From an uncultured Chloroflexia bacterium (GTDB lineage: Bacteria; Chloroflexota; Limnocylindria; Limnocylindrales; CSP1-4), in contig CAVUCC010000001.1 of assembly GCA_963739885.1 (NCBI GenBank), positions 206,516 through 270,515 of the forward strand: 64,000 nt of DNA, read 5' to 3'. The position numbers were made by a program, and so were the translations under genes. The notes under the pieces are model-generated. The model had not been told where the DNA came from and searched no databases. It saw only the letters and a list, made by a program, of their open reading frames with translations. Numbering within the stretch: position 1 is the stretch's first letter; each line of letters opens with the position of its first letter. Positions 7,666 through 61,621 of this stretch are shown in pieces.

Positions 7666-7683
7666 CCGCGCTGGCACGTCGAA

Positions 7684-9805: not shown

Positions 9806-10362
9806 GCGTACCGCTCGAAGGACCCGGCCAGGGCGCGGATCGCCCGCCCGGGCGCGCCGGGGCGCGACGCACCCGCATGCTCGGCGATCTCGTGCAGCGC
9901 AGTACGGCGGAACGCGAGGATCGCCTCGCGCACGTCGCGTCCGAGGGCCGTGACGCGAGCCCGGGTGGCACGACGATCCGTCTCGTCGGGCCTCAGGGTG
10001 ACCAGTCCGCGGCGCTCGAGCCGGCGGAGGAGCCGGCTCGTCGCGGGCAGGGTCACGCCCACCCTGGCTGCGACCTCGCCGACCCTGATGCCGTCCGGCG
10101 GCTCACCGAGGATCAGCAGCGCGCGCCATTGGGAGAACGTCAGGTCGACACCGGGCGCGGCGCGCTCGAGCGCCTGAGAGGTGAGACCGACGGCGCCGAT
10201 GACGATCCGCTCGAGGTCGGCGACAGGGTCCAGCGCGTGGTCACCGCCTCGCCGTGCGTCGCGATGCGAGGGGACGTCGCCGTCCGGAGCGGATCCACCA
10301 CCGGCGGCAGCGTCGCGTCCGTCCGGGGCAGCATGGAATGCGGGGGGTTGTCCGGGATTCAT
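9802..10362 (-). CDS. MarR-family transcriptional regulator
   Basis: Winged HTH: LTFSQWRALLILGEPPDGIRVGEVAARVGVTLPATSRLLRRLERRGLVTLRPDETDRRATRARVTALGRD. ATGA overlap with the ClC start. Confidence 0.65.
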   Translation of the reverse strand: MNPGQPPAFHAAPDGRDAAAGGGSAPDGDVPSHRDARRGGDHALDPVADLERIVIGAVGLTSQALERAAPGVDLTFSQWRALLILGEPPDGIRVGEVAARVGVTLPATSRLLRRLERRGLVTLRPDETDRRATRARVTALGRDVREAILAFRRTALHEIAEHAGASRPGAPGRAIRALAGSFERYA

Positions 10363-10464
10363 GCCACCTAGGATAGTCGACAGTTGCCAGGTGGCTATTA
10401 TCGGGCGGCTGAGTCCCCGCACGAGCCGGCGGCACGGCCGGTCGGATGCGATCGGACCAAGACG

Positions 10465-11547
10465 CTACGGCAGCGGCCGCCAGGCGCGTCCGAGCAGCAG
10501 CGAGGCCCCGAGCAGCAGCGAGGCGAGGGCGACGAACGCAACGCTCGCCTCGACCACCTCGTGCCGGGTGATGAGCGACGTGGGCAAGCTCGCGAACACC
10601 TGCTCGAGGTCGCTCGCGCTCTCGGCCGGGTAGTAGGTGCCCCCGGTCATGGCCGCGATCTGGCGCAGGGTCGCCTCGTCGATGCCCCGCCGGAAGCCGC
10701 CGGGGAGGCCGCCGCCGGTCCCACCCCCACCGCCACCGCCGTTGCCGAAGAACCCGCCATTCGGCTCGCGTCCGACGAACTGGGGGGCGCAGGCAGGATC
10801 CTGGCCGCCACCGGAGGCGGTTCCAAATCCGATCGTGTACACGCGAACCCCCCGGTCGGCGGCCTGCTGCGCGGCCGCCAGCGGATCGACACCCGAGTTG
10901 CTCGCGCCGTCGGTGAGCACGACCACGATGTCGGGCGCATACGCGCCGCTCGGGACGGGCGTGATCGCGGTTCCGCCGTCGGGCTGGCTGGGGGCCACCG
11001 AGCTGTCCACCTCGGCGATCGCGTCGAGCGACTCCAGGATGCCGCTGCCGACGGCTGTCCGGCGCCCGGTCGCCAGGCTGTGAAGCGCGTCGAGCAGCAC
11101 GTTGACGTCCGTCGTCGGAGCCTGGACGAGCTCGGCGTAGCTGCCGAAGGCGACGATCCCGATCTGCGTGCTGGACGCCTGGTGCTCGATGAACGACGCC
11201 GCGGCGGCTTCGGCCGCCTGGAGGCGGCTGGGCGGGATGTCGGTCGAGCACATGCTGCGCGACACGTCGATCGTGAGCAGCACCGTGGTGCGGTTGACGG
11301 GCACGCTGGCAATGACGACGGGCCGGCTGAAACCGACCACCAGGCTGGCGACCGCCAGCGCGAACAGGGCGAACGGGATGTGACGCCGGAGCCGTGCGCC
11401 TCCGGGCCGCGCGGCCCGGACCAGCGACAGGCTCGAGTAGCGGATGCCGCCGGGCTTGCGGCGCCGCAGACTCCACACGTAGCCGGCGACGAGCAGCGGG
11501 ACCAGCACCAGCAACAGCAGGAACGCAGGCCACAGGATGTCGATCAT
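10465..11547 (-). CDS. VWA-domain protein (BatB-like)
   Basis: N-terminal TM then DxSxS MIDAS motif (LLTIDVSRSM), VLTDGASNSG, a glycine-rich tract and a C-terminal TM. Confidence 0.75.
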   Translation of the reverse strand: MIDILWPAFLLLLVLVPLLVAGYVWSLRRRKPGGIRYSSLSLVRAARPGGARLRRHIPFALFALAVASLVVGFSRPVVIASVPVNRTTVLLTIDVSRSMCSTDIPPSRLQAAEAAAASFIEHQASSTQIGIVAFGSYAELVQAPTTDVNVLLDALHSLATGRRTAVGSGILESLDAIAEVDSSVAPSQPDGGTAITPVPSGAYAPDIVVVLTDGASNSGVDPLAAAQQAADRGVRVYTIGFGTASGGGQDPACAPQFVGREPNGGFFGNGGGGGGGTGGGLPGGFRRGIDEATLRQIAAMTGGTYYPAESASDLEQVFASLPTSLITRHEVVEASVAFVALASLLLGASLLLGRAWRPLP

Positions 11548-11578
11548 CGCGGGTTCTCCGTCGTCCGTCCCGGCCGGC

Positions 11579-12592
11579 TCACGGGAGCCGTCCCAGCCAC
11601 AGGAACGAGGTGCCGGCACCCACGACCAGCAGCAGCAGGCCGGCGCCCGCGAGGACCGAGGTCAGCTCGACAGGCTGCGGCTGGATCACCAGCCGCGGGT
11701 CGAGGTTCTCGTACACCGCATGCAGCTGGTCCGTGCTGTCGGCGGCGTAGTAGCTGCCGCCGGTAAGATCCGCGATCTGCCGGAGCAGGGCAGCATCCAG
11801 CTGCGTGTGCACCCGGAACCCGTTCAGGTCGAGATCTGCGCCAGCCTGGCTGCCGATGCCGACCGTGTCGATCCGGATGCCGGCGTCGGCGGCCGCCTGG
11901 GCGGCCCGGACCGGGTCCGGGTTCTCGTTGTTCTCGCCATCGGTCAGGAGCACGATGACCGCCGAGCCGTGGCTGCCCGGCGGCACCGGCGCCGGAGTGG
12001 GAGTCGGATCGGGCGCGGGCGAGCGGTTCGTGTAGTAGTCCACGTTGCCGCCCGACTCGGCGACCCGGATCGCGGTGAGCGACGACGTGATGCCCTGGGC
12101 GAGCGACGTCCCCTTCTCGGGGGACAGCCGGTCGATCGCGGCCAGCACGGCGGCCTGGTCGGTGGTCGGGACCTGGACCGAGAGGCCCGAGTCGCTGAAC
12201 GCGACCACGCCGATGGCGATGCCCGACGGCTGGCGCTTGACGAAGTCCGTGGCTGCCGCCTTGGCGGCGGCCATCCGCGAGGGCTGGAGGTCCGTCGCCG
12301 CCATGCTTCCGGACACGTCGAAGGCGAGCACGACCGTGCCCTGCTGGACGGGCAGGCCCAGCGTCGCCTGGGGTCGAGCCAGGGCGATCACCAGGACCAT
12401 CAGCCCCAGCAGGAACAGGCTGGCCGGGATCAGCGTCCGGCGGCCCGGACGGCGGCCGTCCGGCCGGTCCCTGTCGAGCCCGCCCAGCACACCGGCGCGG
12501 GCGCGGCGGCGGCGCCCGATCTCCGCATACAACCAGGCGCCCGCAGGGATGGCGAGCAGGAGCAGCAGCATCGGGGGCCAGATCAGCGCCAT
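11579..12592 (-). CDS. VWA-domain protein (BatA-like)
   Basis: MALIWPPMLLLLLAIP TM, then VLAFDVSGSMAATD MIDAS motif, VLLTDGENN and a C-terminal TM. The start overlaps the DUF58 stop. Confidence 0.75.
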   Translation of the reverse strand: MALIWPPMLLLLLAIPAGAWLYAEIGRRRRARAGVLGGLDRDRPDGRRPGRRTLIPASLFLLGLMVLVIALARPQATLGLPVQQGTVVLAFDVSGSMAATDLQPSRMAAAKAAATDFVKRQPSGIAIGVVAFSDSGLSVQVPTTDQAAVLAAIDRLSPEKGTSLAQGITSSLTAIRVAESGGNVDYYTNRSPAPDPTPTPAPVPPGSHGSAVIVLLTDGENNENPDPVRAAQAAADAGIRIDTVGIGSQAGADLDLNGFRVHTQLDAALLRQIADLTGGSYYAADSTDQLHAVYENLDPRLVIQPQPVELTSVLAGAGLLLLVVGAGTSFLWLGRLP

Positions 12593-12594
12593 CG

Positions 12595-13500
12595 CTACCG
12601 CCTCGCCGCCGCCGGCGCGGGTGCCCTGCGGCGACGTAGCTCGGCCATCCGCACGATGGCGCGCACCAGGTCGTCGTCGGTGGACAGGGCAAGCGCCTCG
12701 ACCCCCGACCGCGCGAACGCGCGACGCACATCCCCCTCGCGCTGCGCGGTCGCCGCGGCGAATCGCCGCCGGAATGCGCCGTCTGAGGTGTCGACGTACA
12801 GCTGCTCTCCGGTCTCGGCGTCCTGCATGATCAGCGGCCCGGCGTCTGGCAGCTCCATCTCGCGCGGATCGAGCAGCCGGACCGCGACCACCTCGTGGCG
12901 CCGGTTGAGCAGGTTGAGCGGCCGCTCCCAGCCGGGCGCGCTGATGAAGTCCGAGACCACGAACACGAGCGAGCGACGCCGGATCGACGCCCGGGCGGCA
13001 TCGAGCAGCGGCGCCAGGTCGGTGAACGGGCGCGGCCGGCAGCATCGGCTGCGCGAGCAGATCGTTGACCAGGCGCAGCACCTGCCGCCGGCCACCGCCG
13101 GCCGGGATCGTGCGCTCCACCCGGCTCCCGTACACGACCGCGCCCACGCGATTGCCACGGCGCGTCAAGAGCCGGGCCAGCGTGGCCACGAAGTCGATCA
13201 GGACGGTGCGCTTCTGACGCTCGCCGTCAACCGTGCCGAAGTCCACCGACGGGCTGAGGTCGAGCAGGAACCACGCGGTCAGGTCGCGGTCCTCGAGGTA
13301 CTCGCGGACATACGGCTCGTCAAGACGGGCGGTGACGTTCCAGTCGATGTACCGGACGTCGTCGCCGGGCTGGTACTCGCGCAGGTCCGCGAGATCCACC
13401 CCGTTGCCGTACAGCAGGCTGCGGTAGTCGCCCTGGAGCAGGCCGTCCAGCCGGCGGACGACCTGCCAGTCGAGGCGCTGGAGGATGCGCTCAGGCGCTG
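12595..13500 (-). pseudogene. DUF58-domain protein (MoxR-associated), frameshift near 13040; 5' end approximate
   Basis: N-terminal GDYRSLLYGNGVDLADLREYQPGDDVRYIDWNVTAR lies in the frame of ORF 11579-13399. The C-terminal part (SLVFVVSDFISAPGW...) lies in the frame of ORF 12595-13158. Confidence 0.7.
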
Positions 13501-14510
13501 ACGCGACCGTCGGTCGACTCCCTGAGGGGCACGACGGGTGCCGGAACTCGGGCCAGGATGGTGGTCAGGATGTCGTCGCTGGTGACGTTGTCCGAGAGGG
13601 CCTCGAACGACAGCACCAGGCGATGGCGGATGACGTCGCGGGCCATGTCGTAGACGTCCTGGGGCAGCACGTAATCCCGGCCGCGGACGAACGCCAGCGC
13701 ACGAGCGGTGAGGATCAGGTTGATCGACGCCCGGGGGCTGGCGCCGTAGGTGATGTACCGCTCGAGCTCGGGCATGCCGGCAGCCCTGGTCATGCGCGTC
13801 GACGTCGCCAACCGGACCGCGTAGTCGATCAGCGAGGGGTCCACGTAGACCCGATCCGTCTCCTGCTGGAGGCGGACGAGGTCATCGGTCGTAAGCACCT
13901 CGGCGATGCGTTCGGCCGGGCCCGTCTGGCGCTCGACGATCACGAACTCCTCGTTGCGGGTCGGGTAGCCGACCAGGACCTTGAGCATGAACCGGTCCAC
14001 CTGCGCCTCGGGCAGGGCGTAGGTGCCCTCGGTCTCGATCGGGTTCTGGGTGGCCAGGACGAGGAACGGCTCGGGCACGTGATGCGTCTCGCGGCCGATC
14101 GTGACCTGGCGCTCCTGCATCACCTCGAGCAGCGCGCTCTGGACCTTGGCCGGCGCCCGATTGATCTCGTCCGCGAGCAGGAGGTTGGTGAACACCGGAC
14201 CCAGCGACGTGTTGAACTCACCCGTCTTCTGGTTGTAGATGCGGGTGCCGATGAGGTCCGCGGGGACCAGGTCCGGCGTGAACTGGATCCGCTTGAACTC
14301 ACCACCGATCGAGGCCGCCAGCGTCTTGATCGCCATCGTCTTGGCCAGGCCCGGCACGCCCTCCACGAGGAGGTGGCCGCGCGCCAGGAGGGCCACGACC
14401 ATCCGCTCGAGCAGGTGATCCTGGCCGACGATCACCTTCTTGACCTCGTACAGGACGCGCTCCATCGGCGCGGCGCGGGCCACCGTCACGTCCTGGTCCA
14501 TCGGCATCAC
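13491..14510 (-). CDS. MoxR-family AAA+ ATPase
   Basis: Walker A (GVPGLAKT), Walker B (LLADEINRAPAKVQSALLEVMQERQVT) and the MoxR C-terminal lid are present. Confidence 0.9.
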   Translation of the reverse strand: MMPMDQDVTVARAAPMERVLYEVKKVIVGQDHLLERMVVALLARGHLLVEGVPGLAKTMAIKTLAASIGGEFKRIQFTPDLVPADLIGTRIYNQKTGEFNTSLGPVFTNLLLADEINRAPAKVQSALLEVMQERQVTIGRETHHVPEPFLVLATQNPIETEGTYALPEAQVDRFMLKVLVGYPTRNEEFVIVERQTGPAERIAEVLTTDDLVRLQQETDRVYVDPSLIDYAVRLATSTRMTRAAGMPELERYITYGASPRASINLILTARALAFVRGRDYVLPQDVYDMARDVIRHRLVLSFEALSDNVTSDDILTTILARVPAPVVPLRESTDGRVSA

Positions 14511-14517
14511 CTCCCGG

Positions 14518-15390
14518 CTAGTACTGGGGCAGGCCGGCCGCGCCGCCTGCCACGTCGATCGGTACGGCGAGGCCGATCCCGACGAACACGTCTTCCTTGG
14601 TGGGGTTGATGAGCGCGGCCACGATGCCGATCACCCTGCCGTTGGCGTCGAGCAGGGGCCCGCCCGAGTTGCCGGGGTTGACGGCGGCATCCACCTGGAT
14701 CAGGCCGCTCAGGACCTGGCCGCTGTCGGGGAGCGTGAACGAGCGATCCAGGCCGGACACGATGCCAGAGCTCATCGACCCGTACAGCCCGAACGGGTTG
14801 CCGACCACGAATGCCTGGCTACCGACGCGGACGGATCTCGGGTCGCCGAGCACAGCCGGCTGCAGGACCGACGGCGGCTGATCCGGCTGGAGCACCGCGA
14901 TGTCGGAGTCCGGCTGGCGGCTGGCGATCGAGGCGGTCGATTGCGACCCGTCGGCAAACGTGACCTCGATGCCGGTGGCGCCGTCGACCACGTGCAGGCT
15001 GGTCAGGATCTCACCCGCGTCGTCGACGACGACGCCGCTGCCGAGCGATGCGTCGCCGGAGTCGGACCCACGCTGGGCGTGAACCAGCACCAGTGATGGC
15101 TGGATCTGCTCGTAGGCGACCGCGGACAGCGGTGGGGCGGGGGTCACGGAGGCGAGCGCGCTGGCGATTGCGTCGTTGACGTCGGCCCGGTCGAGCTGCG
15201 GCGGTCCGGGCACGAGGGTGTTGTAGCCAGCGATCGCGATCAGCGCCGCGGCCAAACCCGCGACGAACAGGCCGGCGCTCCGCGCGCTCGGGCGGCGCCG
15301 GCGCCGACGGCGAACGGGTGGCCCTGGGTGCAGCTCGGCAAGGCCCCACGGCCGGGTCGGGCCATCCGGTGGGATCTGAGGATTTGGCAT
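14518..15390 (-). CDS. trypsin-like serine protease (S1C/HtrA-like, no PDZ domain), membrane anchored
   Basis: N-terminal TM, catalytic His (TSLHVV), Asp (DIAVL) and Ser (GNSGGPLLD) motifs. Start at MPNPQIP (15390). Confidence 0.75.
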   Translation of the reverse strand: MPNPQIPPDGPTRPWGLAELHPGPPVRRRRRRRPSARSAGLFVAGLAAALIAIAGYNTLVPGPPQLDRADVNDAIASALASVTPAPPLSAVAYEQIQPSLVLVHAQRGSDSGDASLGSGVVVDDAGEILTSLHVVDGATGIEVTFADGSQSTASIASRQPDSDIAVLQPDQPPSVLQPAVLGDPRSVRVGSQAFVVGNPFGLYGSMSSGIVSGLDRSFTLPDSGQVLSGLIQVDAAVNPGNSGGPLLDANGRVIGIVAALINPTKEDVFVGIGLAVPIDVAGGAAGLPQY

Positions 15391-15473
15391 GCCACCCGGC
15401 TGCCGGGTGAATGGGGAGCCGTCGATCGGGCTGCCTCCGTCCGGTCGTGGAGCGCCGGGCAAGTCTGCATGCC

Positions 15474-15488
15474 GTTCCTGAAAGGAAC
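15474..15488. promoter_or_regulatory. perfect palindrome GTTCCTGAAAGGAAC in the divergent intergenic region between the protease and the LuxR regulator; candidate operator
   Basis: A GTTCC-N5-GGAAC inverted repeat read directly from the sequence. It lies about 85 bp from the protease start and 330 bp from the regulator start. Confidence 0.35.
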
Positions 15489-15814
15489 ATGACAGCCCAT
15501 TCCAGCCGTTCGGACGCCGGTGCGGAGCCTGCACCGACCGCCCCACCGAACCTGTGCCCCTCACCGCGCCGATGGGTGTGCGGGCGACCCCCACGGCCGT
15601 GGGGGCCCCCGACCCCACGCGCGTCGCCCTGACACCTAACCTCCGTTGCCCGAATCCCCACCCGTGTTCCCGAGCTTCGGCACGAGGGTGCCCCATCGAG
15701 CCCCCTGTCGTGTCTGGTGATCGCTCCGACCCGGGGGCACCATCGACCCACACGGGACGCAGAAGCCGCCAACGAGGCCCCAGCAGGCGTCGACGGACGG
15801 CGGGAGGACAGGCA

Positions 15815-16885
15815 ATGCAGCTATCGCAGCTCACCGAGGACCTGGCACTGCTGCTGCCGATCGTGATCCTCGTCGAGGGGATCATCGGCATCGTCGCCTG
15901 GTTCTGGTACGGATCCAGGGGCGGGCGCGGTGCGCGCGTTGCAACCTGGCTGGGCCTCGTCACCCTCACCCTGTGGGTCGGCTCGGCCGCCGCGTTCGTG
16001 CTCCTCCACCTGCTGTACTTCACGTTCGGCTCGGCCGCCACCATCCTCGGCGCGATCGTCGTCACGGCGCTGATGCTGCTGATGCCGTTCGCCTGGGCCG
16101 CCGTCATTCGCCACCAGGGCACGGCGACGGCCCGGCCCGCAGGCGCGTTGAGCGCCGGATGCCGGCGATGCCCACCTCGCAAGCGTCGCGCGACCGGACC
16201 GCAGGCGGAGGCGGACCAGCTCTCGGTGCTGCTCGCCATCGTCGACTTCCCGATGCTCGGCAGCGCGTTCCGCTCGCTCATCGAGCGTGAGCCAGATCTC
16301 CGGGTCGCGGGCGAGGTCGAGACCCGCGACGACCTCGTCGCCCAGGTCAGGAGCACTCGGCCGGACGTCCTGGTCACCGAGTGCGCGCCGTTCGGGGGTC
16401 TCGGCTGCCCGACCTTCGAGACCCTGGAGCAGATCCACGACGAGTGTCCGGAGACGCGGATCATCGCCCTCGACTGCCGGTGCGCCGCGGAGCAGTTCTC
16501 CGTCGCGTTGAAGGCGGGAGCCAACGGCTACCTGACCCGCGAGGCCACCGACACCGACGTCCTGGTCGCGATCCGGAGCGTGGCCGCCGGTCACACCTAC
16601 GTCAGCCCCGCGATCGTGACCCGGATGATCGACACCTATGTGCGGCGGACGCCGGATGCCACGTTCGAGGACCCGTACGACACGTTGACCGCTCGCGAGC
16701 GCGAGATCCTGCTGCTGGCCGCGATGGGCCACACCAATCGCGACATCGCCCGATCGTTGAAGCTCTCCGACCAGACCGTCCATTCCCATCGCGCGAGCGT
16801 GATGGAGAAGCTGGGGCTCCACGACCGCGTCGAGCTGCTCCGCTACTGCGTCCGGCGCGGCATCCTCAACCCCTCGACCCTGTGA
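15815..16885 (+). CDS. membrane-anchored LuxR/NarL-family regulator with an atypical receiver domain
   Basis: Four N-terminal TM helices, then a REC-like domain in which the expected phospho-acceptor position reads DVLVTEC (Glu, not Asp), then a LuxR HTH (LTAREREILLLAAMGHTNRDIARSLKLSDQTVHSHRASVMEKLG). SD-like GGGAGGA sits upstream of the ATG. Confidence 0.7.
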   Translation: MQLSQLTEDLALLLPIVILVEGIIGIVAWFWYGSRGGRGARVATWLGLVTLTLWVGSAAAFVLLHLLYFTFGSAATILGAIVVTALMLLMPFAWAAVIRHQGTATARPAGALSAGCRRCPPRKRRATGPQAEADQLSVLLAIVDFPMLGSAFRSLIEREPDLRVAGEVETRDDLVAQVRSTRPDVLVTECAPFGGLGCPTFETLEQIHDECPETRIIALDCRCAAEQFSVALKAGANGYLTREATDTDVLVAIRSVAAGHTYVSPAIVTRMIDTYVRRTPDATFEDPYDTLTAREREILLLAAMGHTNRDIARSLKLSDQTVHSHRASVMEKLGLHDRVELLRYCVRRGILNPSTL

Positions 16886-17565
16886 ACGTGGTCGATCGCC
16901 TGCGCGCCTTCTGGGCGAGCGTTCGGCCGCGCACCCGACGGGGACGCGCGCTCGCAATCGCAGGCGTGCTCGGGGGGTCGGTGCTGATGTCGGCCGTCCT
17001 GTTCGCGGGCGCCGTGATGGCCTGGTCTCCGTATCTCGACTTCAGCCTCCATCGCGACGTGAACGCACGGTCGTGGGCCGTGCTGGACGTCTCGTTCGCG
17101 AGCTCGTCGACCTGCGCGCGGTGCCATGCGACCGAGGCACAGCGGCTGACCGGCGGAAGTCACGCCGACATCGGCTGCCAGAGCTGCCACGGCCCGCTGC
17201 AGGCACACGTGGCCGCGGGCGATCAGGCGGGCAGCGACACGGTGGCGGTGGCGGTGCCCACCGACGAGGTGTGCACGCGGTGCCACGTCGCCGCCGAGGG
17301 GCGCCCGGCCAGCCAGGCGCAGATCATCCCGACGGAGCACTACGTCGTGCAGTGCCTCCAGTGCCACGACCCACACACCGCGATCGCGGAGCGACCCCCA
17401 GTGGTCGAGCACCCGCTGGACGGCCTGCCGCCCTGCCTGACCTGCCACGGACCCGAGGGGTTCAAGGCCCGCAACGAGCGCCACCCGATCGTCCCCGACG
17501 ACGAGGGATGCCTCAACTGCCACGCGCCGGGCCGGGGCCCGGACCAGCTCACGGTGTCGCCATGA
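16882..17565 (+). CDS. membrane-anchored hexahaem c-type cytochrome
   Basis: GTG start overlapping the upstream stop (GTGA). An N-terminal TM helix is followed by six CxxCH motifs (CARCH, CQSCH, CTRCH, CLQCH, CLTCH, CLNCH) in 227 aa. Confidence 0.7.
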   Translation: MNVVDRLRAFWASVRPRTRRGRALAIAGVLGGSVLMSAVLFAGAVMAWSPYLDFSLHRDVNARSWAVLDVSFASSSTCARCHATEAQRLTGGSHADIGCQSCHGPLQAHVAAGDQAGSDTVAVAVPTDEVCTRCHVAAEGRPASQAQIIPTEHYVVQCLQCHDPHTAIAERPPVVEHPLDGLPPCLTCHGPEGFKARNERHPIVPDDEGCLNCHAPGRGPDQLTVSP

Positions 17566-18019
17566 GCGAGCGGATCGAACGCGTTGAGGAGCCGGCGGCC
17601 GACGCCGGCGTGCGCGCGACCGAGGACCCGATGATCGTCGGGCAGGCGGACGCCGCGGTCGAGTCCGAGCCGGCGGCCGACGCCGCACAGGCCCCGGAGA
17701 TCGCCGAGGTCGAGCCCGTGACCGAGCCCGTCGCGATGGCCCCGACCGAACAGCCAGCCGAAGCCGAAGCCGAAGCCGAAGCCGAAGCCGAAGCCGAAGC
17801 CGAAGCCGAAGCCGAAGCCGAGCCCGAGCCGAAGCCGAAGCCGAAGCCGAAGCCCCGGAGATGGTCGCCGAGCCGGCCCCCGCCGTCATGGCGGAGGCGA
17901 TGCCCGTCGCGGACGAGGAGCCGGACATCGCGGCCATCGGACCGGCGCCGGCCGAGGCCGTCGATCCCGCGTCCCTGGTGCCCCTCGACGAGATCGCTCC
18001 GGCGATCGTCAGCGCCTCC
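17562..18019 (+). other. acidic low-complexity ORF containing an (AE)n(PK)n repeat; reads through, after a frameshift near 17855, into the Fe-S protein
   Basis: ATGA overlap with the cytochrome stop. Begins MSERIERVEEPAADAG... and ends ...AEAEAEAEAEPEPKPKPKP. An in-frame continuation (MVAEPAPAVMAEAMPVADEEPDIAAIGPAPAEAVDP...) exists in another frame with no stop before the Tat motif. Confidence 0.4.
17758..17853. repeat. hexanucleotide tandem repeat (GCCGAA)n, about 16 units, inside a coding region
   Basis: Directly visible: gccgaagccgaagccgaa... then gagcccgagccgaagccgaagccgaag. Confidence 0.9.
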
Positions 18020-18723
18020 ATGAGCCGCCGTGCGTTCCTCGGGTTCGGGCTGATCATGGCCGGCGGTGTGGCGGGTGCGGCGGGCCTGTCCCGGCTGTTC
18101 CCGGTGTTCGACGAGTCGGCGGATGCGCCGAGCCCGATCGTCCCGACCTACGACCCCGCCGACAAGGCGTGGACGTTCGTCGTCGACACCGCCTCCTGCA
18201 TTGGCTGCGGCCTGTGCGTGGTCGCCTGCAAGGAGGAGAACCACGTCGCCGAGGAGGCCGCAGTACACCCGGACCTGGGTCGAGCGCCACGTGATCACCG
18301 CGGACGGTGACCTGTTCGTCGACTCGCCCGAGGCCGGCATGTACGGCTTCCCCGCCGAGTCGACCGCCCCGGGCGCGGCCGGCAAGGCCGTCGACGCCTC
18401 GTTCTTCGAGCCTCGCCTGTGCATGCAGTGCGAGGACTCGCCGTGCACGGCGGTGTGCCCCGTCGGCGCCACCTACCGGACCGAGGACGGCGTGATCCTG
18501 GTCGACGCTCAGCCGCTGCATCGGCTGCGGATACTGCGTGGTCGCGTGCCCCTACGGCGCGCGCTACATGACGCCCGCCGGCGGCGACAACCCCAACGAC
18601 ATGCCCGGCGTCGCCGACAAGTGCACCTGGTGCTACCACCGGATCAGCCGAGGCGCCCAGCCCGCGTGCGTCGAGGTGTGCCCGGTCGGTGCCCGCCGGT
18701 TCGGTGACGCCAGCGACCCGTAA
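18020..18723 (+). pseudogene. Tat-signal 4Fe-4S ferredoxin-type subunit (NrfC/PsrB/DmsB-like), split over three frames
   Basis: [23 protein letters not shown] twin-arginine motif. [15 protein letters not shown] is in frame 2, [17 protein letters not shown] in frame 0, and [18 protein letters not shown]...[30 protein letters not shown] in frame 1. Frameshifts near 18255 and 18510, the latter an extra C in cagCcgctgcatc. Confidence 0.7.
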
Positions 18724-18836
18724 CAGCGAGCATCGCCACGCTCGTCCGCCAGCGTGCCCCCAAGCAGCTCCATCCCGAGTACGGCACCCGGCCGCGCGTG
18801 CTCTACCTCGGCCCAGCCATCGAGGAGGCCTGAGGA

Positions 18837-20100
18837 TGCAGGCGACCGGTCTGACCCTCACGCTCGGCGGACCGTCGTCCCGATCGGACCGCGCGCCGCC
18901 GGCCGCGCGCTCGCGCGCGAGGTCGCGGCGATGTCGCTCGCGCTGCGCCTGTGGCTGGCGGGCCTGTCCGCCGTGATCGCGCGTCGGCGCGGTGGCCGCG
19001 CTGATCGCCCTGCCGCCCGGCTGGGAGGTATTCGGGACCAGCCCCAGCTTCGAGTGGGGGCTGCTGATCGTGGGCTACGTGTTCTTTGCCGTGATGACGA
19101 GCGGGCTGTGTCTCGCGTCGTCGCTGGGCACCGTGTTCGGGATCGAGCGGTTCCGGCCCCTCGAGAAGCGCGCACGCAGTGCTCGCCCTGCTCAGCCTCA
19201 CCACCGCGTTCGGGATCATCGCGCTCGACCTCCACTATCCGGTCCGGATGGTGTTCGGCGCCGTGCTCGTCCCCTCGCCCACCTCGCCCATGTGGTGGAT
19301 GGGCGTGTGTTACGGCATCTACCTGGTCGTGCTCCTGGTCGAGGTGTGGAGCATGTTCAGCCACCACCCCAGGATCCACCAGTACGCATGCACGGCGGCG
19401 ACGTGCGTGGCCGTGGTCGCGCCGTCAACGCTCGGCGCGGTGTTCGGGGTGCTCGCCGCCAAGGCGTTCTGGAACGGCCCGTTCACGGTGCTGATGATGG
19501 TCGGCGCGGCGTACCTGGCCGGGACCTCGCTGCTCGGCCTGGTGTTCTACGCCGTCTCCCGTCTGGGTCTCCAGGACCACGAGCGGGCGCGCCTGGAGGC
19601 GATCCCGTCGATCCGGCCAGCTGATCACGATCGCGCTGGTGATCGTGATGGTTCTGCTGGCCCGCCAGGTGGTCGTCGGGCTGCTGGCCGATGATCGCGG
19701 GCTGCGCGAGGCGACGTCGCCTTGGTCACGGGGCCGCTGGCGCCGCCTTCTGGCTGCGGGTCGTGGTCGGGCTCGCGCTGCCGCTGGTGCTGGTGCTGCT
19801 GCCGATGACGCGCACGCCGGCCGGCCTGTGTCGCGGCGAGCGTGCTCGTCCCTGGGCGGGGTGTTCCTGGATCGCTACCTGTTCGTGACCGCCGGTCAGA
19901 TCGTGCCTGCCACCGCCCATGCCGGCGCGGTGTCCAGCCCGTATGCCTCGTACATGCCGTCGCCGGTCGAGCTGGCGATCATCGCCGGCGCGGTCGCGTT
20001 CGTCGCCCTCGGCTACACGCTCGCCGAGCGCTACCTCGACCTGCGCCAGGAGCCCGATCACATGAACTGGGCGTGGCCGTGGCTGCCACGACCACGAGGC
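18837..20100 (+). pseudogene. NrfD/PsrC-family polytopic membrane quinol-interacting subunit, fragmented by 5 or more frameshifts; boundaries approximate
   Basis: Recognisable NrfD-like segments in alternating frames: MSLALRLWLAGLSAVIA; FEWGLLIVGYVFFAVMTSGLCLASSLGTVFGIERFRPLEKRA; LALLSLTTAFGIIALDLHYPVRMVFGAVLVP...GAAYLAGTSLLGLVFYAVSRLG; LITIALVIVMVLLARQVVVGLLADD; GPLAAAFWLRVVVGLALPLVLVLLPMTRTPAGL; LGGVFLDRYLFVTAGQIVPA. A GAGGAGG SD precedes the ATG at 18837. Confidence 0.55.
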
Positions 20101-20124
20101 CCTCGGCGAGGCGGAGGCAGAGGC

Positions 20125-20769
20125 ATGAACCGGCCGCCGTCGCCCGCTACTGGTTCCCGGCCGTCGGTCATCGCGCTGGTGGGGCGATCGCATCTCGCCG
20201 CATTCCTCCTGGTCGTCGCCGTGCCTGACCTCTCGAGCCGGCGGCGACATCTCGGCGCCGACCGCGACGCCGGCGCGCCGGCGGCGACCCCGACCCCGCT
20301 CTCGCCCATGGCCAACTCGCCGGTCGGGGATCCAGATGGCGGCCAATGCGGACTGCTCCGCCTGCCACGTCACCACCAACGGCACCGTGGGCACGAAGAA
20401 CATCCCGGTGATGGCCCACCCGCTGTGGGGCTGGCGAAACTGCACCGCCTGCCACACGACCGGCAGCCTCGTGTCCACGGCGCCTGGCCACTCCGGTCTC
20501 CACAAGGACGATTGCCTGGTGTGCCACAAGGCCCCGGACGCCGACTCGGCAGCGAGCAACCCGCCGCTCCGGCCCGAGCACATGGGCTACACCGAGCCAT
20601 GCACGTCGTGCCACGGCCAGGACCAGCACGCCCCGCTGCCCGATTCGATGAAGGGCCGGGGGACAACTGCTGGATCTGCCACAACGGCCCCGAGTTCACC
20701 TACCTGTTCAACGAGGACGGCTCGCCCAGCCCGGTGCCCCCGTCCCCAGCGGCGGCCGGCGCGGGCTGA
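20125..20769 (+). pseudogene. membrane-anchored pentahaem c-type cytochrome (NrfB/ActA-like), 2 frameshifts
   Basis: SD GGAGG plus ATG at 20125, then a TM helix (HLAAFLLVVAVP). CSACH, CTACH, CLVCH and CTSCH are in frame 2 (20336-20650). CWICH with the C-terminus is in frame 1, stop at 20769. Confidence 0.6.
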
Positions 20770-20789
20770 CGGCTGCGCGCACCGGCGCC

Positions 20790-21011
20790 GGCGCGTACCA
20801 GAAGGCGTACGGGCAGCTGCTGTCCAAGACGAGCACCGAGTGGGCGCCCTGGTACGTGATCCCGGCCGACCACAAGTGGTTCATGCGGGTCGCGGTGTCG
20901 GCCGCCATCCTGTCCGCTCTCATCGACCTCGATCCGCAGTTCCCCGAGCCCACCAGGGCCGAGCGCGAGGAGATGCTCATGACCAGGGACGAGCTGCTCG
21001 CCGAAGGCTGA
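20790..21011 (+). pseudogene. 3'-terminal fragment of a polyphosphate kinase 2 (PPK2) gene
   Basis: Frame-0 translation AYQKAYGQLLSKTSTEWAPWYVIPADHKWFMRVAVSAAILSALIDLDPQFPEP...AEG* matches the conserved PPK2 C-terminus. No N-terminal two-thirds is present. Confidence 0.6.
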
Positions 21012-21026
21012 GCCGGCGGAGGTGAG

Positions 21027-21593
21027 ATGGGCATAGGGGCAGACTCGAGAGGCGAAGCTCCCGTCGCGGCATGGGCGACCCTCGCCCTGGCGGTCGCGAT
21101 CCCGCTCGGCCTCGTGGCGCTCGCGTCGGCGCTGGGGTGGGTCAGCGACCAGGTGGTGGTCATCGGCCCCTTCGACCGCGCGTCCTTCGGCTGGGTCGTG
21201 GTCGTCTCGCTCTGGCTCTCGGCGCCCGTGGTCGCAGGGTTCGTCTGGCGACGGCTTCCACCGGCCACCAGCCTGGCCCCCGCCCTCGTCCTGTGGGTCA
21301 TCGTCGCCGGCGTGGCAACCATCCTGCTGTGGCTGGCCGTGGCGTTCCCCGATTGTCCAGGCGGTGCGAACCGCACGCCGATCGAATGGGTCACACCGTC
21401 GCTCGTTGTTGGCGTCCTGGTCGGCGCCGCCGTCGGCGTGAGCGGTCTCATCGCCGAGCGAATCGTGCGCGGCGGTCATCCATGGTGGGCCGTCATCATC
21501 GGCGCCGGCAACGCGGCGGTCATGCTCCTCGCGGCGCTCATGATCGCAGCCATGACGGTGCTCGCGGTGCCAGCGTGCCAACGGTCAGTCTGA
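21027..21593 (+). CDS. hypothetical integral membrane protein (about 5 TM)
   Basis: 188-aa ORF with multiple hydrophobic helices. No known motif. Confidence 0.45.
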   Translation: MGIGADSRGEAPVAAWATLALAVAIPLGLVALASALGWVSDQVVVIGPFDRASFGWVVVVSLWLSAPVVAGFVWRRLPPATSLAPALVLWVIVAGVATILLWLAVAFPDCPGGANRTPIEWVTPSLVVGVLVGAAVGVSGLIAERIVRGGHPWWAVIIGAGNAAVMLLAALMIAAMTVLAVPACQRSV

Positions 21594-21636
21594 AGCCAGC
21601 CCGATCGACCCCTTCGCGGCGCCGGCTCGCTGGGGC

Positions 21637-22086
21637 ATGATGGGGGCCGTCATGGACAGCACACCCGGCGCACCCCGGTACAGCCTCCTGCGCGACCTGA
21701 TCGCGCTGGTCGTGGTCGTGGTGGCGTGCCCGGCCGCCCTGTTCGGCGGCTCGATGCTGGGCTGCGTGGGTCAGGGATTCAATCCCGCCTGCGCCATGAA
21801 CGCGATCGTCATCTCGCCGATCCTGCTGCTCGCCTCCGGCCTCGTCGCCGGGCTGTTGTCGCGCGGCTGGACGGGGCTGCTGATCACCTTCGTGGCCACC
21901 GTGATCGGGATGATCACGATCCTGCTCCTGTCGTTCGGCGTGGGCGAGGCGGTCCCGGTGGACCCGATCTCCGGGGTGCTGGCGACGATCTGGTTCTACG
22001 CCCCGGTGGCGATCGGCTATGGAGCCGGGCGCCTGGTGTGGCGTCTGTTCGAAACGCGCGGGGCGGGCGGCCCGAACGGATCCTGA
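21637..22086 (+). CDS. hypothetical integral membrane protein (about 4 TM)
   Basis: 149-aa ORF with hydrophobic helices. Confidence 0.45.
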   Translation: MMGAVMDSTPGAPRYSLLRDLIALVVVVVACPAALFGGSMLGCVGQGFNPACAMNAIVISPILLLASGLVAGLLSRGWTGLLITFVATVIGMITILLLSFGVGEAVPVDPISGVLATIWFYAPVAIGYGAGRLVWRLFETRGAGGPNGS

Positions 22087-22143
22087 GCCGGAGCCGAGCG
22101 GGACGCGGGCGCAGCCGTCGGCTGGCGCTGGCTCGTCGTCAGG

Positions 22144-23358
22144 TCAGGCCACGCGCTCCTCCGGAGGCCGGAGCCGCCGGAACGAGCGGTACAGCAGCAG
22201 GTCGTAGACGATCTTGAGGCCGCCCGAGACGAGGAACGGCAGGCTGGCGAGCGCGACGGTCGCGAACATCGGGCCGGCCAGCAGCGGCGCCGTGGCGACC
22301 CCCAGCGACCGGGCGATGCCGGTCACCCCGGCCGCGGCCGATCGTTCGTCGGGCGCCACGATCGCCATCGTGTAGCTCTGGCGCGTGGGCACGTCCATCT
22401 GGCTGATCGAGAAGCGGGCGAGCAGGAACGCAACCGCGAGCGGCAGCGTCGGCATCAGCGGGACCAGCATCAGCAGCACGTTCGACGGCAGGTGGGTGAA
22501 CACCATCGTGCGCACCAGCCCGAAGCGGGCCGCGAGCCGGCCCGCCGGCGAGCGCCGAGAACCCGGCCAGCGAGGTTCGCGCCGGCCAGCACGAGCCCGA
22601 TGGTCGCCGGGTCCATGCCGAACCGCTGGTGGAACCAGAAGGCGATGAACGACTGGATGGCAAAGCCGCCGGCGAACGCGTCGAGCGCGAACAGCGCCGA
22701 GAGCCGGAGCACGACGCCCGCGCGACTGGTGCAGTCCGAGGCGGTCGCGGATCCGCGGCGTCGTGGACCGTGGCGGGCGGCCACCTCCACGCGCGCCGAC
22801 ACGCTCGAGAACAGCAGCGCGAGCAGGACAGCCGACCAACGCATAGCCGACGATCACGTATCGGTAGGCATCGGCTTCGCTCGCCCCGCCGGCGATCGCC
22901 GCCTGCGACAACGCGCCACCCGCGAGCGTGCCCACCGCGGTGGCCAGCGATCCCGCCAGCTGGTACCGGGCGAACAGGCTCGTTCGGCGGCGGTCCGGGA
23001 CCAGCTGCGAGAGCGAGGCCTGCTCGACCGCCAGGAACGGGCCGATCTCGTTGCCGCTGGGGCTGATGACGCCGAACGTCGCGGCCACCAGCAGGATCGC
23101 GAACACGGGCGTCGCGACGAACACCAGCCCGGCGACGAGCATCAGCCCCGCGCCCGCGAGCAGCACACGACGCCGGCCGACCCGATCGGCGTGGGTGGTC
23201 AGCCACAGCGAGACGCCCGCGTCACCCAGCAGCGTCAGCGCGAGCAGCAGCCCGATCTCGGCACCCGAGAGCCCGATCGCATCCAGGTACAGGACGAGCA
23301 CGACGGCCAGGAACCCGTAGCCGAACATGCGCAGGATCCGGGTCGCGAACAGCAGCAC
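22144..23358 (-). pseudogene. MFS transporter with two compensating frameshifts (near 22860 and 22560)
   Basis: N- and C-terminal halves are in one frame with a garbled middle. The true middle segment (LRLSALFALDAFAGGFAIQSFIAFWFHQRFGMDPATIGLVLAGANLAG) lies in ORF 22470-22844 in a different frame. Confidence 0.65.
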
Positions 23359-23476
23359 GATGTCGGCCCGGTCGGTGGTCCCCGGAGGGCCCGGCGATGC
23401 GGCGGTCGGCGATGCGGCGGTCGGCGATGCGGACGCGGTGTGCCGGACTCCGGTCGCCTCGATGGCCCCGACACGG

Positions 23477-24706
23477 TCAGGCGCGCCCGCGCGCGAGGTC
23501 GATCAGCCGGCCGAGCACGCGCTCCCCGTCGGCCCGCAGGCCGTTGTGCTGGTACTCGTTGGTGATCCAGGGCCGCAGCCCACGAACCGCGACAGCCGTC
23601 TCCTCCGCGAACGCCCGCTCGACGTACAGGTCGTCCACGTAGATCGTGGCCGCGACCGGGACCTCGTTGCGGGCCAGCTGATCCGCATCGTAGAGGTGCG
23701 GCCAGACGTGCTCCGCGATCAGATCCGCCGCCTCGCGATGGGGTCGGAGCAGCCCGTAATCCTCGAACATCCATGGGAACACGTGCTCCGCCGTGAACGC
23801 CTCGGTCGTGGCGATCTCGTCGGGCAGCAGCCGGTGAGCCGACCAGCGGGTCGCCACGCCGTCCGCATACGACGACTCGTGGAGCGTCGCGTACAGCGGG
23901 TTGCGGGTGAACCGGACGCCTCCCTCGACGTCGTGCAGGAAGGCGGGCGAGCCAAATGGCAGCTCGATGACGTGATGGAGCAGCTCGAACCCGGCGCTGT
24001 CACCCAGCCACAGGCCCAGCTGCCGGAAGCGGCGCACGGTGAGCCGGTCGCCCGACGGCAGGCGGACGTCCTCGTCCTCGAGCCGCCGGTGGATCTCCCG
24101 GACCCGGTTGCGGTCGTCGGGGTAGCGGTCGAAGTAGCGGCGGTTGGCCTCGATCAGGCGCCGGTACGTCGCGCCGTAGATGTCGTCCACCGGGCGGCCG
24201 ATGGGTGACAGCCCACCGGTGAGGAACGCCTCGCGCAGCCCCTCGGGCGCGATCGAGAGGTAGCTCAGGCTGGTGAAGCCACCAAAGCTCTGGCCGAGCA
24301 CGCTCCATCGCTCGACGCCCAGCTCGCGACGGATCGCCTCGGCGTCGCGCACGATCGAGTCGGCCCGGAGATGGGTGAGGTACTCGGCCTGGGCGGCGGA
24401 GTCGTCGCCCGGGATCGCCGGTCCGACCGGCGTCGAGCGGCCCGTGCCTCGCTGGTCGAGCAGGAGCACCCGGAAGTCGCGCAGGGCCCGCGCCATCCAG
24501 CCCGACGGCGGGCTGGTGGGTCGGGCGGCCTCGAAGCCCGGCCCTCCCTGGAGGAACACCAGGTACGGCCGGTCCGTGCCGTCGGGCGCGGCGACCTCGC
24601 GCGTGAACACCGTGATCGATGGCCCGTCCGGCCGGGCGTGGTCGAGCGGCAGCCGGTGCTCGCGCTCGGTGAGGATCGCCCCTGGAACCTGATACGTGAC
24701 GCTCAT
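23477..24706 (-). CDS. pip: prolyl aminopeptidase / proline iminopeptidase (S33 alpha/beta hydrolase)
   Basis: LVFLQGGPGFEA, LLLDQRGTGRS and the nucleophile elbow GQSFGG. Confidence 0.8.
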   Translation of the reverse strand: MSVTYQVPGAILTEREHRLPLDHARPDGPSITVFTREVAAPDGTDRPYLVFLQGGPGFEAARPTSPPSGWMARALRDFRVLLLDQRGTGRSTPVGPAIPGDDSAAQAEYLTHLRADSIVRDAEAIRRELGVERWSVLGQSFGGFTSLSYLSIAPEGLREAFLTGGLSPIGRPVDDIYGATYRRLIEANRRYFDRYPDDRNRVREIHRRLEDEDVRLPSGDRLTVRRFRQLGLWLGDSAGFELLHHVIELPFGSPAFLHDVEGGVRFTRNPLYATLHESSYADGVATRWSAHRLLPDEIATTEAFTAEHVFPWMFEDYGLLRPHREAADLIAEHVWPHLYDADQLARNEVPVAATIYVDDLYVERAFAEETAVAVRGLRPWITNEYQHNGLRADGERVLGRLIDLARGRA

Positions 24707-24798
24707 GTGTTGCACGATAGCGGCTCGCCGGCCGTCACTCACCGCATGTGCCGCCGGTGGCTGGTCCGGCCAGGACCGCCGCGGCCGGCGCGCCGCGC

Positions 24799-25782
24799 CT
24801 ACCAGCGCTGATGGACGAGCGGCTTGACACGAGCCTCGTACAGGGCGCGGATCCGGTCCATCGTCTCGGGCGGCAGCGGCGGCAGGTCGGCGGCGAGCGC
24901 GTTGGACCGGGCCTGCTCCGGTGTGCGGGCGCCGGGGATCGTGGTGCTGACCCCGTCATGGGCGAGGATCCAGCGCAACGCCATCTGGGCCATCGTCGCG
25001 CCCGCCGGGACGAGCGCCCTGAGCTCCTCGACCACCTCGAGGCCGGTCTGGTAGTCGACACCGGCGAACGTCTCTCCGGCATCGAACGACTCGCCGTGGC
25101 GGTTGAACGCGCGGTGGTCGTCCGCCTCGAACGCGGTGTCGCGGCGCAGCTTGCCCGTCAGCAGCCCCGAGGCCAGCGGCACCCGCACCAGGACGCCGAT
25201 GTCGTGCCGGGCCGCCTCCGCCAGGAACCGGTCTGCCGGGCGCTGGCGAAAGATGTTGAAGATGATCTGGACCGTGGCGACACCCGGGAGCTCGATCGCC
25301 TTGAGCGCCTCCTCCACCTTCTCCACGCTCACCCCGTAGGCCGCGATCGCCCCCGCCGCCACCAGCTCGTCGAGCGCCGCGAACACCTCGGGCTGGTAGT
25401 AGACCTGGGTCGGCAGACAGTGGAGCTGGATGAGGTCGAGGCGGTCGACGCCGAGGTTCTCGCGACTTCGATCGACCCAGCCGCGGAAGGCCTCGGGCGT
25501 GTAGCTCGCCATGTCCAGCGGAGCGTCGCGTCCCATCTTGGTGGCCACCAGGAACGCCTCACCCGGACGCTCCCGCAGGAACCGGCCGATCAGGCGCTCG
25601 CTGTGGCCGTCACCGTATACATCGGCGGTATCGAACAGGGTGACACCGGCATCCGCCGCCGCGTGCAGAGCGCGCAGGCTGGTGGCGTCATCGACGCTGC
25701 CCCACGACCCACCGATGGCCCACGCCCCGAATCCGATCACGCTGACGTCCCGCCCGGTCCTGCCGAGGCGCCGATGCTCCAT
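24799..25782 (-). CDS. aldo/keto reductase
   Basis: MEHRRLGRTGRDVSVIGFGAWAIGG...FDTADVYGDGHSERLIG is an AKR signature. Confidence 0.85.
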   Translation of the reverse strand: MEHRRLGRTGRDVSVIGFGAWAIGGSWGSVDDATSLRALHAAADAGVTLFDTADVYGDGHSERLIGRFLRERPGEAFLVATKMGRDAPLDMASYTPEAFRGWVDRSRENLGVDRLDLIQLHCLPTQVYYQPEVFAALDELVAAGAIAAYGVSVEKVEEALKAIELPGVATVQIIFNIFRQRPADRFLAEAARHDIGVLVRVPLASGLLTGKLRRDTAFEADDHRAFNRHGESFDAGETFAGVDYQTGLEVVEELRALVPAGATMAQMALRWILAHDGVSTTIPGARTPEQARSNALAADLPPLPPETMDRIRALYEARVKPLVHQRW

Positions 25783-27789: not shown

Positions 27790-28917
27790 GTGGCCGACCT
27801 GTCCACCGTGTTCACGGGCATCCGGTTCGAGAACCCGTTCCTGCTCGCATCCGCGCCACCGACCGAGTCCGAGTCCAACATCATGCGGGCCTTCGAGGCC
27901 GGGTGGGGAGGGGTCGTCACCAAGACCATCGGCCTGCATCCCGTCGTCAACGTCGCCGGACCCAAGACCAAGTTCCTGCGCGCCGACGCTGGCGGCTCCC
28001 GGCTGTCGATGGCCAAGCGCCCCGACACGACCCTCATGGCGTCGTGGAACTGGGAGCTGATCTCCGACAAGCCGATGGACTGGTGGCTGCCGAAGCTGGC
28101 ATCGATCAAGCGCGTCTGGCCCAACCGCGTCCTCGTCGCCTCGATCATGGCCGGGTCGGGCACCGACAAGGAGCTCGACAACTGGCAGACGCTGGTCGAG
28201 GGCGTCCAGGACGCGGGCGTCGATGCGATCGAGCTCAACTTCTCGTGCCCGCACATGGACCGGATCGACATGGGCTCGAACGTAGGCAAGGACCCCGTCC
28301 TGTGCTCGGTGTCCACGCAGGCGGTCAAGGCCGTGGCAAGGGTCCCCGTATGGGTCAAGCTGACGCCGGCGACCGCGAACATCGTGGAGGAGGCCGAGGC
28401 CACGTTCCGCGGTGGTGCCGACGCCATCACCTCGTCCAACACCTTCCCGTCGCTGCCGCTGTTCGATCCGCTGACGCTCGAGCCCGAGGTCAACGTCGAC
28501 GGGATGGTCTCTGCCGGCGGGCTGGGCGGGCCGGCGATCCTGCTCCTATCACTGGCCAAGATGGCCGAGATGACGGAGGCGTTCCCGGATCGCGCCTTCT
28601 CGGGAATCGGCGGAGTCTCGACCTTCGAGCACGCGCTCAACTACTTCCTGCTGGGTTGCGGGACCGTACAGGTGGCCACGGCCGCAATGCTCGACCATGC
28701 CATCGGGCCGAACGTGATCCGCAGGCTGACCACGGGCCTGGAGGAGTTCCTCGACCGCAACGCCGATCGCGGTTGGACCTCGCTCGAGGACTTCCGCGGC
28801 ATCCGGCGCGGGCGCGTCGTCTCCCAGTCGTCGATCCGGCGCCCGGACGCGGCCGGCTACCACGGCGGCTACGAGGACGAGGCCGAGGGCTACGCGCCCG
28901 ATCCCGTCAAGGTCTGA
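27790..28917 (+). CDS. preA: dihydropyrimidine/dihydroorotate dehydrogenase-family flavoprotein (PreA-like catalytic domain, lacking the C-terminal 4Fe-4S domains)
   Basis: GTG start. FENPFLLASAPPT, NFSCPH and the DHODH-like TIM-barrel motifs (SSNTFPSLPLFD, GIGGVSTFEHALNYFLLG). No Cys-cluster tail. Confidence 0.75.
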   Translation: MADLSTVFTGIRFENPFLLASAPPTESESNIMRAFEAGWGGVVTKTIGLHPVVNVAGPKTKFLRADAGGSRLSMAKRPDTTLMASWNWELISDKPMDWWLPKLASIKRVWPNRVLVASIMAGSGTDKELDNWQTLVEGVQDAGVDAIELNFSCPHMDRIDMGSNVGKDPVLCSVSTQAVKAVARVPVWVKLTPATANIVEEAEATFRGGADAITSSNTFPSLPLFDPLTLEPEVNVDGMVSAGGLGGPAILLLSLAKMAEMTEAFPDRAFSGIGGVSTFEHALNYFLLGCGTVQVATAAMLDHAIGPNVIRRLTTGLEEFLDRNADRGWTSLEDFRGIRRGRVVSQSSIRRPDAAGYHGGYEDEAEGYAPDPVKV

Positions 28918-28948
28918 TCGCCGGGCCCCACGGGTCGGAGGAGAGCGA

Positions 28949-28977
28949 GCGGCCCCGGAGCAGGGCTCCGGGGCCGC
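28949..28977 (+). terminator. intrinsic terminator hairpin after preA, copy 1 of a repeated palindrome
   Basis: gcggccccggagc-agg-gctccggggccgc, a perfect 13-bp stem, followed by tgcgtttcgc. Confidence 0.6.
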
Positions 28978-29490
28978 TGCGTTTCGCTCGCCCGCCGTCC
29001 GGGCGGATCGCCCCGGTCTCCGCGCAGGCACACCGGCTGACCGGCAGCCGTCGTCGATCGGGCGGCGGCCGCCGGTGGTTCGAGCATCCGCTGACCTGGC
29101 ATCCGTCTCCGTCGCCAGATATGACGCCCGGGTTCAGTTCGCCGGCCGCTATGGCGCCCCGCGCGGAACGCACGAACGCGGGATCGCCGCGAACGCGGAG
29201 CCCGGACGCGGGCATTCCATCCCTGGCCCCGGCTCGCATCCGTGGAGCTATCCCGGCGAAGTCACGCGCCGTCGAGCAACGCGACGATCACCCGGAAACC
29301 TGGATGAAGCGAGCGAGCGCCAAGGGCTCGTGGCAGTCACGGAGACAGGGTGGCGCGGCCTCACGGGACGGTCCGTCGGCTGCGCGAGCGAAAGGGGCAC
29401 CGATCGCCCGCGCGACGAACGCCGTACGAGCTTTCGGTGTGGGTGGCCGGAGCCGCGCACCCCGATGGTCGAGAAGGCCCGGAGCTGTGC

Positions 29491-34137: not shown

Positions 34138-34552
34138 CGATCCCTCCCGGAGCCGGCCCGCAAGCCGGCTCGGCGAACGTCGAGGCCGGGCTCGCCATTG
34201 GCTCGACGCGGGGCGGTTGGGCGACCGTGGGACACCCCGCGCGTCGACGCTGCCTCGACGGATGCCCGTTTCTACTCGCCCGAGGACCGTCGCGTCAACC
34301 CCTCGTCCGGCCGCCGATCGCCTCGATCTTGGCTCGCGACGGCATCCCCGAACTCGATCGCCCGCCCTCAAGGCTAAATCGTGGTGGTGACCGGACGCAC
34401 CGGGAACGGAATCGGCGACGCCTCGCGGCACGGGCTCGACGCTGCCCTCTCTTCCCGCGGTGAGTTGTCGCACTCCGGGGACCCCGCGCCGAACGAGCGG
34501 CACCGCAGGCGGGCCGCTCAACCGGGCCGTGGCGCATGCGCTCGGACACGAA

Positions 34553-61554: not shown

Positions 61555-61621
61555 GGGCTCCTGGTTGCGAGCGCGGGGGACGCCGGCTCGGCCGGCGTCC
61601 CCCGCTTGATGGAGATAGGCG

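Follow-up and report, generated by a model that had tools for sequence, protein, structure and literature searches.

An NrfCD-type multihaem-cytochrome operon of an uncultured Chloroflexota population: frameshifts in the deposited sequence as very probable consensus errors of a locally collapsed metagenome assembly

Introduction

Electron-transfer modules of the NrfCD, DsrOP, QrcCD and PsrBC kinds combine a four-cluster ferredoxin bearing a Tat signal with an integral membrane subunit of the PF03916 family, and are flanked by multihaem c-type cytochromes. When genes truly decay, as in Mycobacterium leprae, they accumulate nonsense codons, their dN/dS approaches 1, substitutions greatly outnumber indels, deletions prevail over insertions, and the lesions are reproducible across isolates. 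Among uncultured Chloroflexota, all of the closest metagenome-assembled genome (MAG) relatives of the sequence described here are Nanopore-only Flye assemblies with one round of Medaka, deposited in the Microflora Danica catalogue, the authors of which checked for Nanopore-associated errors and noted that some MAGs of low coverage had a low coding density (PMC12313526).

The DNA analyzed here, hereafter the window, is the whole stretch of 64,000 nucleotides taken from contig CAVUCC010000001.1 (G+C content of ~71%). An earlier note, made from the letters of this stretch, had described a cluster of three electron-transfer genes as shattered across reading frames, and had proposed two causes, ongoing decay of the genes or an assembly that is collapsed or prone to errors at this place. 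Taken at face value, the deposited record would suggest that a Limnocylindria-like Chloroflexota lineage has lost a respiratory module of multihaem cytochromes, and it would inflate pseudogene counts.

Materials and methods

Three JGI contigs obtained from three samples (L024, L025 and L026) served as same-population references. An exact look-up of the hexahaem cytochrome protein yielded the Logan contigs L064, L065 and L066, the JGI contig L067 and the NCBI contig L068, and all eight contigs jointly span positions 6980-25076 of the window. Frame switches were located with a GC3 codon-position hidden Markov model, which misses short segments and, used alone, does not separate a gene boundary from a frameshift. 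Allele states were compared at the sites where L025 and L004 differ; A designates the backbone population, as represented by L025, and B the L004-like state, L004 being a MAG of a different species.

Results

The + strand of the window contains six genes at 15.8-20.8 kb, listed below together with a repeat array located inside one of them.

15815-16150, + strand: small membrane protein gene, 111 aa in relatives (tblastn match of query residues 1-108 at 94%)
16168-16885, + strand: NarL/LuxR-type response regulator, body residues 14-238 uninterrupted
16882-17565, + strand: membrane-anchored hexahaem cytochrome c, six CxxCH motifs, intact
17562-18833, + strand: NrfC/DsrO/PsrB-type four-cluster Fe-S protein, broken at 17828, 18260, 18511 and 18723/18731
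17756-17854, + strand: (GAAGCC)n array of 16.7 hexanucleotide copies, translated as Glu-Ala repeats
18836-20128, + strand: NrfD/PsrC-type integral membrane quinone-interacting subunit, 427-428 aa when intact, with ~15 indels here
20125-20769, + strand: pentahaem cytochrome c, five CxxCH motifs, disrupted by indels at 20133-20325 and by a deletion within a G run at 20658-20662

The best NCBIfam matches of the Fe-S protein were DsrO, TtrB and NrfC, and its best PDB match was 2vpw_B (Thermus PsrB). The NrfD subunit belongs to PF03916, with weak matches to QrcD and DsrP and no match among the PDB sequences. None of the matches to either subunit reached any NCBIfam equivalog cut-off, and neither a molybdopterin catalytic subunit nor NrfA adjoins the operon. 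The four-cluster twin-arginine ferredoxin and the adjoining PF03916 membrane subunit identify an NrfCD-type module, which could not be matched to any particular one of the characterised complexes (Nrf, Dsr, Qrc, Psr, Ttr or ACIII). The operon is a known kind of system, an ordinary if uncharacterised NrfCD-type module conserved in the lineage, and, judging from these families, it probably transfers electrons from quinol to periplasmic multihaem cytochromes.

The long contigs L001 and L002 share the same gene order, with the regulator, the hexahaem, Fe-S, NrfD and pentahaem genes and a polyphosphate kinase gene (PPK2) all intact; their Fe-S, NrfD and pentahaem proteins consist of 409-421, 427-428 and 215-221 aa, respectively, and with L003 included the intact Fe-S proteins measure 409-468 aa. 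A scan of species-representative genomes detected the operon in ~18 MAGs of uncultured Chloroflexota from the Microflora Danica catalogue, almost all of them with intact genes and none closer to the window than 93% nucleotide identity; L015 and L019 are each frameshifted at one or two private sites. Once joined by hand across its frames, the NrfD protein of the window has hundreds of intact homologues with full coverage and up to 85% identity. In the MAG MFD09964.bin.2.77 the whole operon is found on two contigs (L014 and L016), reflecting either a true duplication or a bin of two strains. Further downstream, a 5.6-kb segment of the window (28915-34539) is missing from L001; it harbors an ORF of 1676 aa (29491-34521, - strand) with DUF5060, GH5 cellulase and PKD domains, in which the GC3 frame model detected no frameshift.

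The Fe-S gene starts at 17562, where an ATGA overlaps the stop codon of the hexahaem gene, and its twin-arginine motif, SRRAFLGFG, lies at ~18023 behind a long acidic N-terminal extension. This low-complexity extension of 150-200 aa is in frame in all relatives (window 17562-18020; L001 8732-9190; L003 10681-11290), while the copy number of the (GAAGCC)n array varies from ~8 in L001 to 16.7 in the window and ~30 in L003. In L002 and L004, Leu replaces Met just before SRR, and so the extension seems to be translated. All five independent contigs entering from upstream (L064-L068) stop near the array, and L025 and L026 read through it.

Three-frame translation of positions 18020-20769 revealed the conserved pieces of the Fe-S, NrfD-like and pentahaem proteins, the last three of the operon, in successive frames. 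The Pfam profile Fer4_11 was matched in two frames, over its positions 4-40 and 46-99, respectively, and so was the NrfD profile, over positions 2-46 and 54-212; tblastn with intact orthologues returned consecutive matches in different frames. Aligned with the same-population contig L025, this interval contains 28 indel events, 26 of which are not multiples of 3, at the following positions.

18260, 18511, 18723, 18731, 18836, 18873, 18925, 18929, 18981, 19172
19619, 19716, 19748, 19754, 19830, 19847
20087, 20104, 20133, 20164, 20184, 20190, 20195, 20237, 20243, 20277, 20325, 20662

The splitting of these three genes by at least nine indels, as claimed in the earlier note, is therefore real and was understated. 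All nine approximate positions that it gave reappear in the alignment, although the density of ~1 per 300 bp must be corrected to ~1 per 100 bp. A total of 27 events and all 217 mismatches to L025 fall within 18240-20330, and the 28th event is the G-run deletion at 20662 (20658-20662) in the pentahaem gene. One additional 1-nt deletion at 17828, upstream of 18020 and inside the (GAAGCC)n array, changes Glu-Ala (EA) repeats into KP repeats; since the Fe-S gene really starts at 17562, this indel belongs to it as well. Ten of the 11 single-base insertions copy neither adjoining base, and only two indel events are hosted by G runs, a profile unlike that of replication slippage. Errors of this kind, mostly insertions outside homopolymers, also depart from the classic Nanopore signature of homopolymer deletions. 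Programmed frameshifting, recoding or an alternative genetic code was rejected as a cause, given that the 26 frame-breaking events have no common motif and are missing from the same-population contigs.

Independent assemblies of the same population do not reproduce the disruptions. Several proteins of the window are present exactly in public collections, and outside three patches no 120-nt bin of the comparison with the same-population contigs contained a mismatch or a gap. On either side of the main patch, the sequence of L024, L025 and L026 is 100% identical to that of the window; over the patch these contigs differ from each other at 0-2 sites in 2630 nt, and their Fe-S, NrfD and pentahaem frames are open. 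L064, L065, L067 and L068, which cover upstream sequence, are 99.3-99.7% identical to the window overall, indels counted, and the upstream indels are missing from them. The hexahaem gene had been described as intact, and this holds: it is 100% identical, with 0 mismatches, to five independent contigs, its exact protein being encoded on the Logan contigs and a 192-aa internal-start form on one JGI and one NCBI contig.

These contigs bear directly on the possibility that the strain harbors real pseudogenes through active decay of its Fe-S, NrfD and pentahaem module. Such decay would account for the frames broken in the deposited sequence, and a real deletion does truncate the adjoining PPK2 gene; yet flank-identical contigs carry the intact genes. 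Further evidence against it came from the coding sequences themselves. Removal of the indels leaves 0 stops in 928 codons, and the frame-corrected genes retain every cluster Cys and every CxxCH motif; the Cys motifs are likewise complete in the intact orthologues. The dN/dS values between the window and L001 (0.083 for Fe-S, 0.208 for NrfD and 0.271 for pentahaem) equal those among intact relatives (0.095-0.126, 0.176-0.206 and 0.154-0.302, respectively). No sign of relaxed selection, looked for as nonsense codons, dN/dS tending to 1 and substitutions spread over codon positions, was thus detected in the three corrected genes.

Compared with L001 (~93% nucleotide identity), the window displays ~35 small indels between 18260 and 20658, besides six +1 insertions in the MFS gene and a few at other places; with L003 as the outgroup, the indels polarise to its own branch. 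The same L003-polarised comparison gave ~90 excess window-specific substitutions in the patch. Attribution of this excess to decay was discarded, because most of these substitutions are shared with other relatives, specifically L004: 133 of 165 apparently window-unique substitutions are common to some other relative, and away from indels only ~14 are truly private, 12 of them at codon position 3. Under neutral decay the expected ratio of indels to substitutions is far lower than that observed here. Set against the ~14 private substitutions, the 18 private frame-breaking indels (19 events) give a ratio far above that of neutral decay; moreover, the insertions are not of the slippage type, unrelated genes (MFS, CLC, DUF58 and LuxR) bear the same lesions, and a relative, L006, combines a PPK2 deletion with an intact operon. 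Active gene decay, one of the two causes proposed earlier, is thus refuted by the evidence at hand, and we consider real pseudogenes extremely improbable.

The other proposed cause, an error-prone or collapsed region of the assembly, was supported by the origin of the mismatches. Along the operon, sliding identity revealed a B-like tract at 19300-20060 that is 95-99% identical to L004 and 80-86% identical to L001, the remainder being L001-like. The L004 allele is present at 182 of the 217 mismatches (84%), and no relative carries 22 of them. Everywhere outside the patch the window has the A allele, whereas inside it A and B alternate at intervals of a few sites (114 switches among 474 informative sites in the main patch), B alleles being dominant in its middle. 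The patch variants therefore derive from two known haplotypes interleaved at short range. The indels remain private to the record even with L004 as the comparison, and are confined to mixed patches apart from those at 17828 (repeat array) and 20662 (G run) and from a small number of sporadic +1 insertions. The three patches are as follows.

18240-20330: main artefact patch, differing from same-population contigs by 217 mismatches and 27 indel events, with interleaved allele sets
22147-23421, - strand: MFS transporter gene, containing the second chimeric patch at ~22200-23280
16117-16228: small artefact patch, five indels (-1, +2, +1, +1, +1) and 7 mismatches in ~110 nt

A mosaic of A and B alleles might also originate from recombination, in which case it would be a real import from an L004-like donor and only the one-base indels would be sequencing errors due to low coverage. 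The long B-like tract at 19200-20060, 95-98% identical to L004, is in favor of such an import, as are indel-free divergent tracts between close relatives (for example, 25000-25499 in comparison with L001) and the PPK2 deletions, which attest to natural structural polymorphism in the neighbourhood. Outside the central tract, however, the alleles alternate every few sites, far more finely than in known recombination tracts; natural recombination yields tracts and creates no frameshifts, the mosaic coincides exactly with the indels in each of three separate patches, and unmixed A sequence was recovered from three samples. We therefore regard a recombinant import as unlikely. Still less credible is that the strain truly carries a fine-scale L004-like mosaic import extending over the Fe-S, NrfD, pentahaem and MFS genes, generated by error-prone recombination or repair with scattered non-templated one-base insertions; were it so, a respiratory module would have been killed within an otherwise clonal background.

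The two additional patches display the same features. In the MFS gene, six private +1 insertions (22545, 22569, 22716, 22757, 22781 and 22830) are accompanied by 68 mismatches to the same-population contigs, 60 of which correspond to the L004 allele; two further +1 insertions are located at 23440 and 23447. Five independent contigs, elsewhere 99.5-100% identical to the window, lack the small patch. Owing to this patch, the five indels of which span 16117-16191, a single long ORF (15554-16885) now comprises the LuxR-type regulator as well as the 111-aa gene. The last codons and the stop of the small membrane protein gene are lost through the indels at 16117-16161, and this gene is intact in L064, L065, L067 and L068. 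The insertion at 16191 shifts the regulator body (residues 14-238) out of frame with its native ATG at ~16168, so the regulator, previously described as intact, is not strictly so in the record: its body is unbroken, but the indels at 16117-16191 sever it from its start codon.

Isolated +1 insertions at 5019 and ~5221 (a gene at 4.7-5.3 kb), 8641 (a CLC channel) and 13031 (DUF58) break the respective genes, and those at 8641 and 13031 are missing from L064, L065, L067 and L068, of which L064, L067 and L068 are 99.5-99.7% identical to the window. The low background of indels stated previously for the rest of the window was roughly right as regards these sporadic insertions; a second dense patch of indels lies at 22545-22830 in the MFS gene. 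A hydrolase gene beside the patches is almost clean although the similarity of A and B is about equal there, which counts against the collapse explanation. A possible further frameshift is located at 61450-61622, where a short piece that reads in another frame separates two coding segments of the minus strand, no stop codon being close by.

Downstream of the operon, the truncated kinase gene retains only the following remnant.

20793-21008, + strand: PPK2 polyphosphate kinase remnant, residues 228-299 only (Pfam PPK2 profile positions 179-224 of 229)

The truncation results from a 745-bp deletion at 20792/20793, corresponding to 11953-12697 of L001. This deletion is genuine and not an artefact, since L024, L025 and L026 all have exactly the same junction. 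A separate deletion of 761 bp, which removes the same end of PPK2, distinguishes L006 (at 13976) from L002 (12041-12801), the two being 99% identical, and the operon of L006 is intact alongside it. Several other relatives also have no PPK2 gene beside the operon. Loss of PPK2 looks recurrent.

Discussion

We conclude that the frameshifts are, with high probability, consensus errors introduced in a locally collapsed metagenome assembly and not mutations of the organism. A consensus called from a pileup of two mixed haplotypes gives exactly the observed pattern, which points to two haplotypes collapsed into one consensus in which indel errors persist. The contig backbone represents population A, and at 18240-20330, ~22200-23280 and 16117-16228 the consensus would have been built from A mixed with a related population B, L004-like and belonging to another species. 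B may be a co-occurring related organism or, alternatively, a second copy in the same genome. Mixing of this kind could produce both the site-by-site A/B chimera and approximately one spurious one-base indel per 100 bp, and the mixed reads, probably generated on a platform of the long-read type, are the presumable source of the errors. The real genes of population A, encoding the NarL/LuxR-type regulator, the hexahaem cytochrome, the Tat-exported NrfC-type Fe-S protein, the NrfD-type subunit and the pentahaem cytochrome of a membrane-bound module, in that order, are intact.

The main value of this case lies in caution, its biological interest being low. Comparison of alleles with two reference haplotypes, combined with flank identity, diagnoses such an artefact without recourse to reads.

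As a module, the operon resembles NrfCD, DsrOP, QrcCD and PsrBC in its Tat-signal four-cluster ferredoxin, its PF03916 subunit and its flanking multihaem c-type cytochromes, and differs from them in the acidic 150-200-aa extension of the Fe-S protein and in having no adjoining catalytic subunit. As a set of broken genes, it recalls the pseudogene clusters of the Mycobacterium leprae type in that several adjoining genes bear multiple frameshifts each, but it has none of the nonsense codons, dN/dS of ~1, excess of substitutions, deletion bias or cross-isolate reproducibility that mark such decay. Although most of the errors are insertions outside homopolymers and not homopolymer deletions, the locus is otherwise like a strain- or species-collapsed consensus of a long-read metagenome, with private ORF-breaking one-base indels grouped in patches, perfect flanks and SNP states drawn from two haplotypes, and with isolated frameshifts both elsewhere in the contig and in the related Nanopore MAGs L015 and L019.
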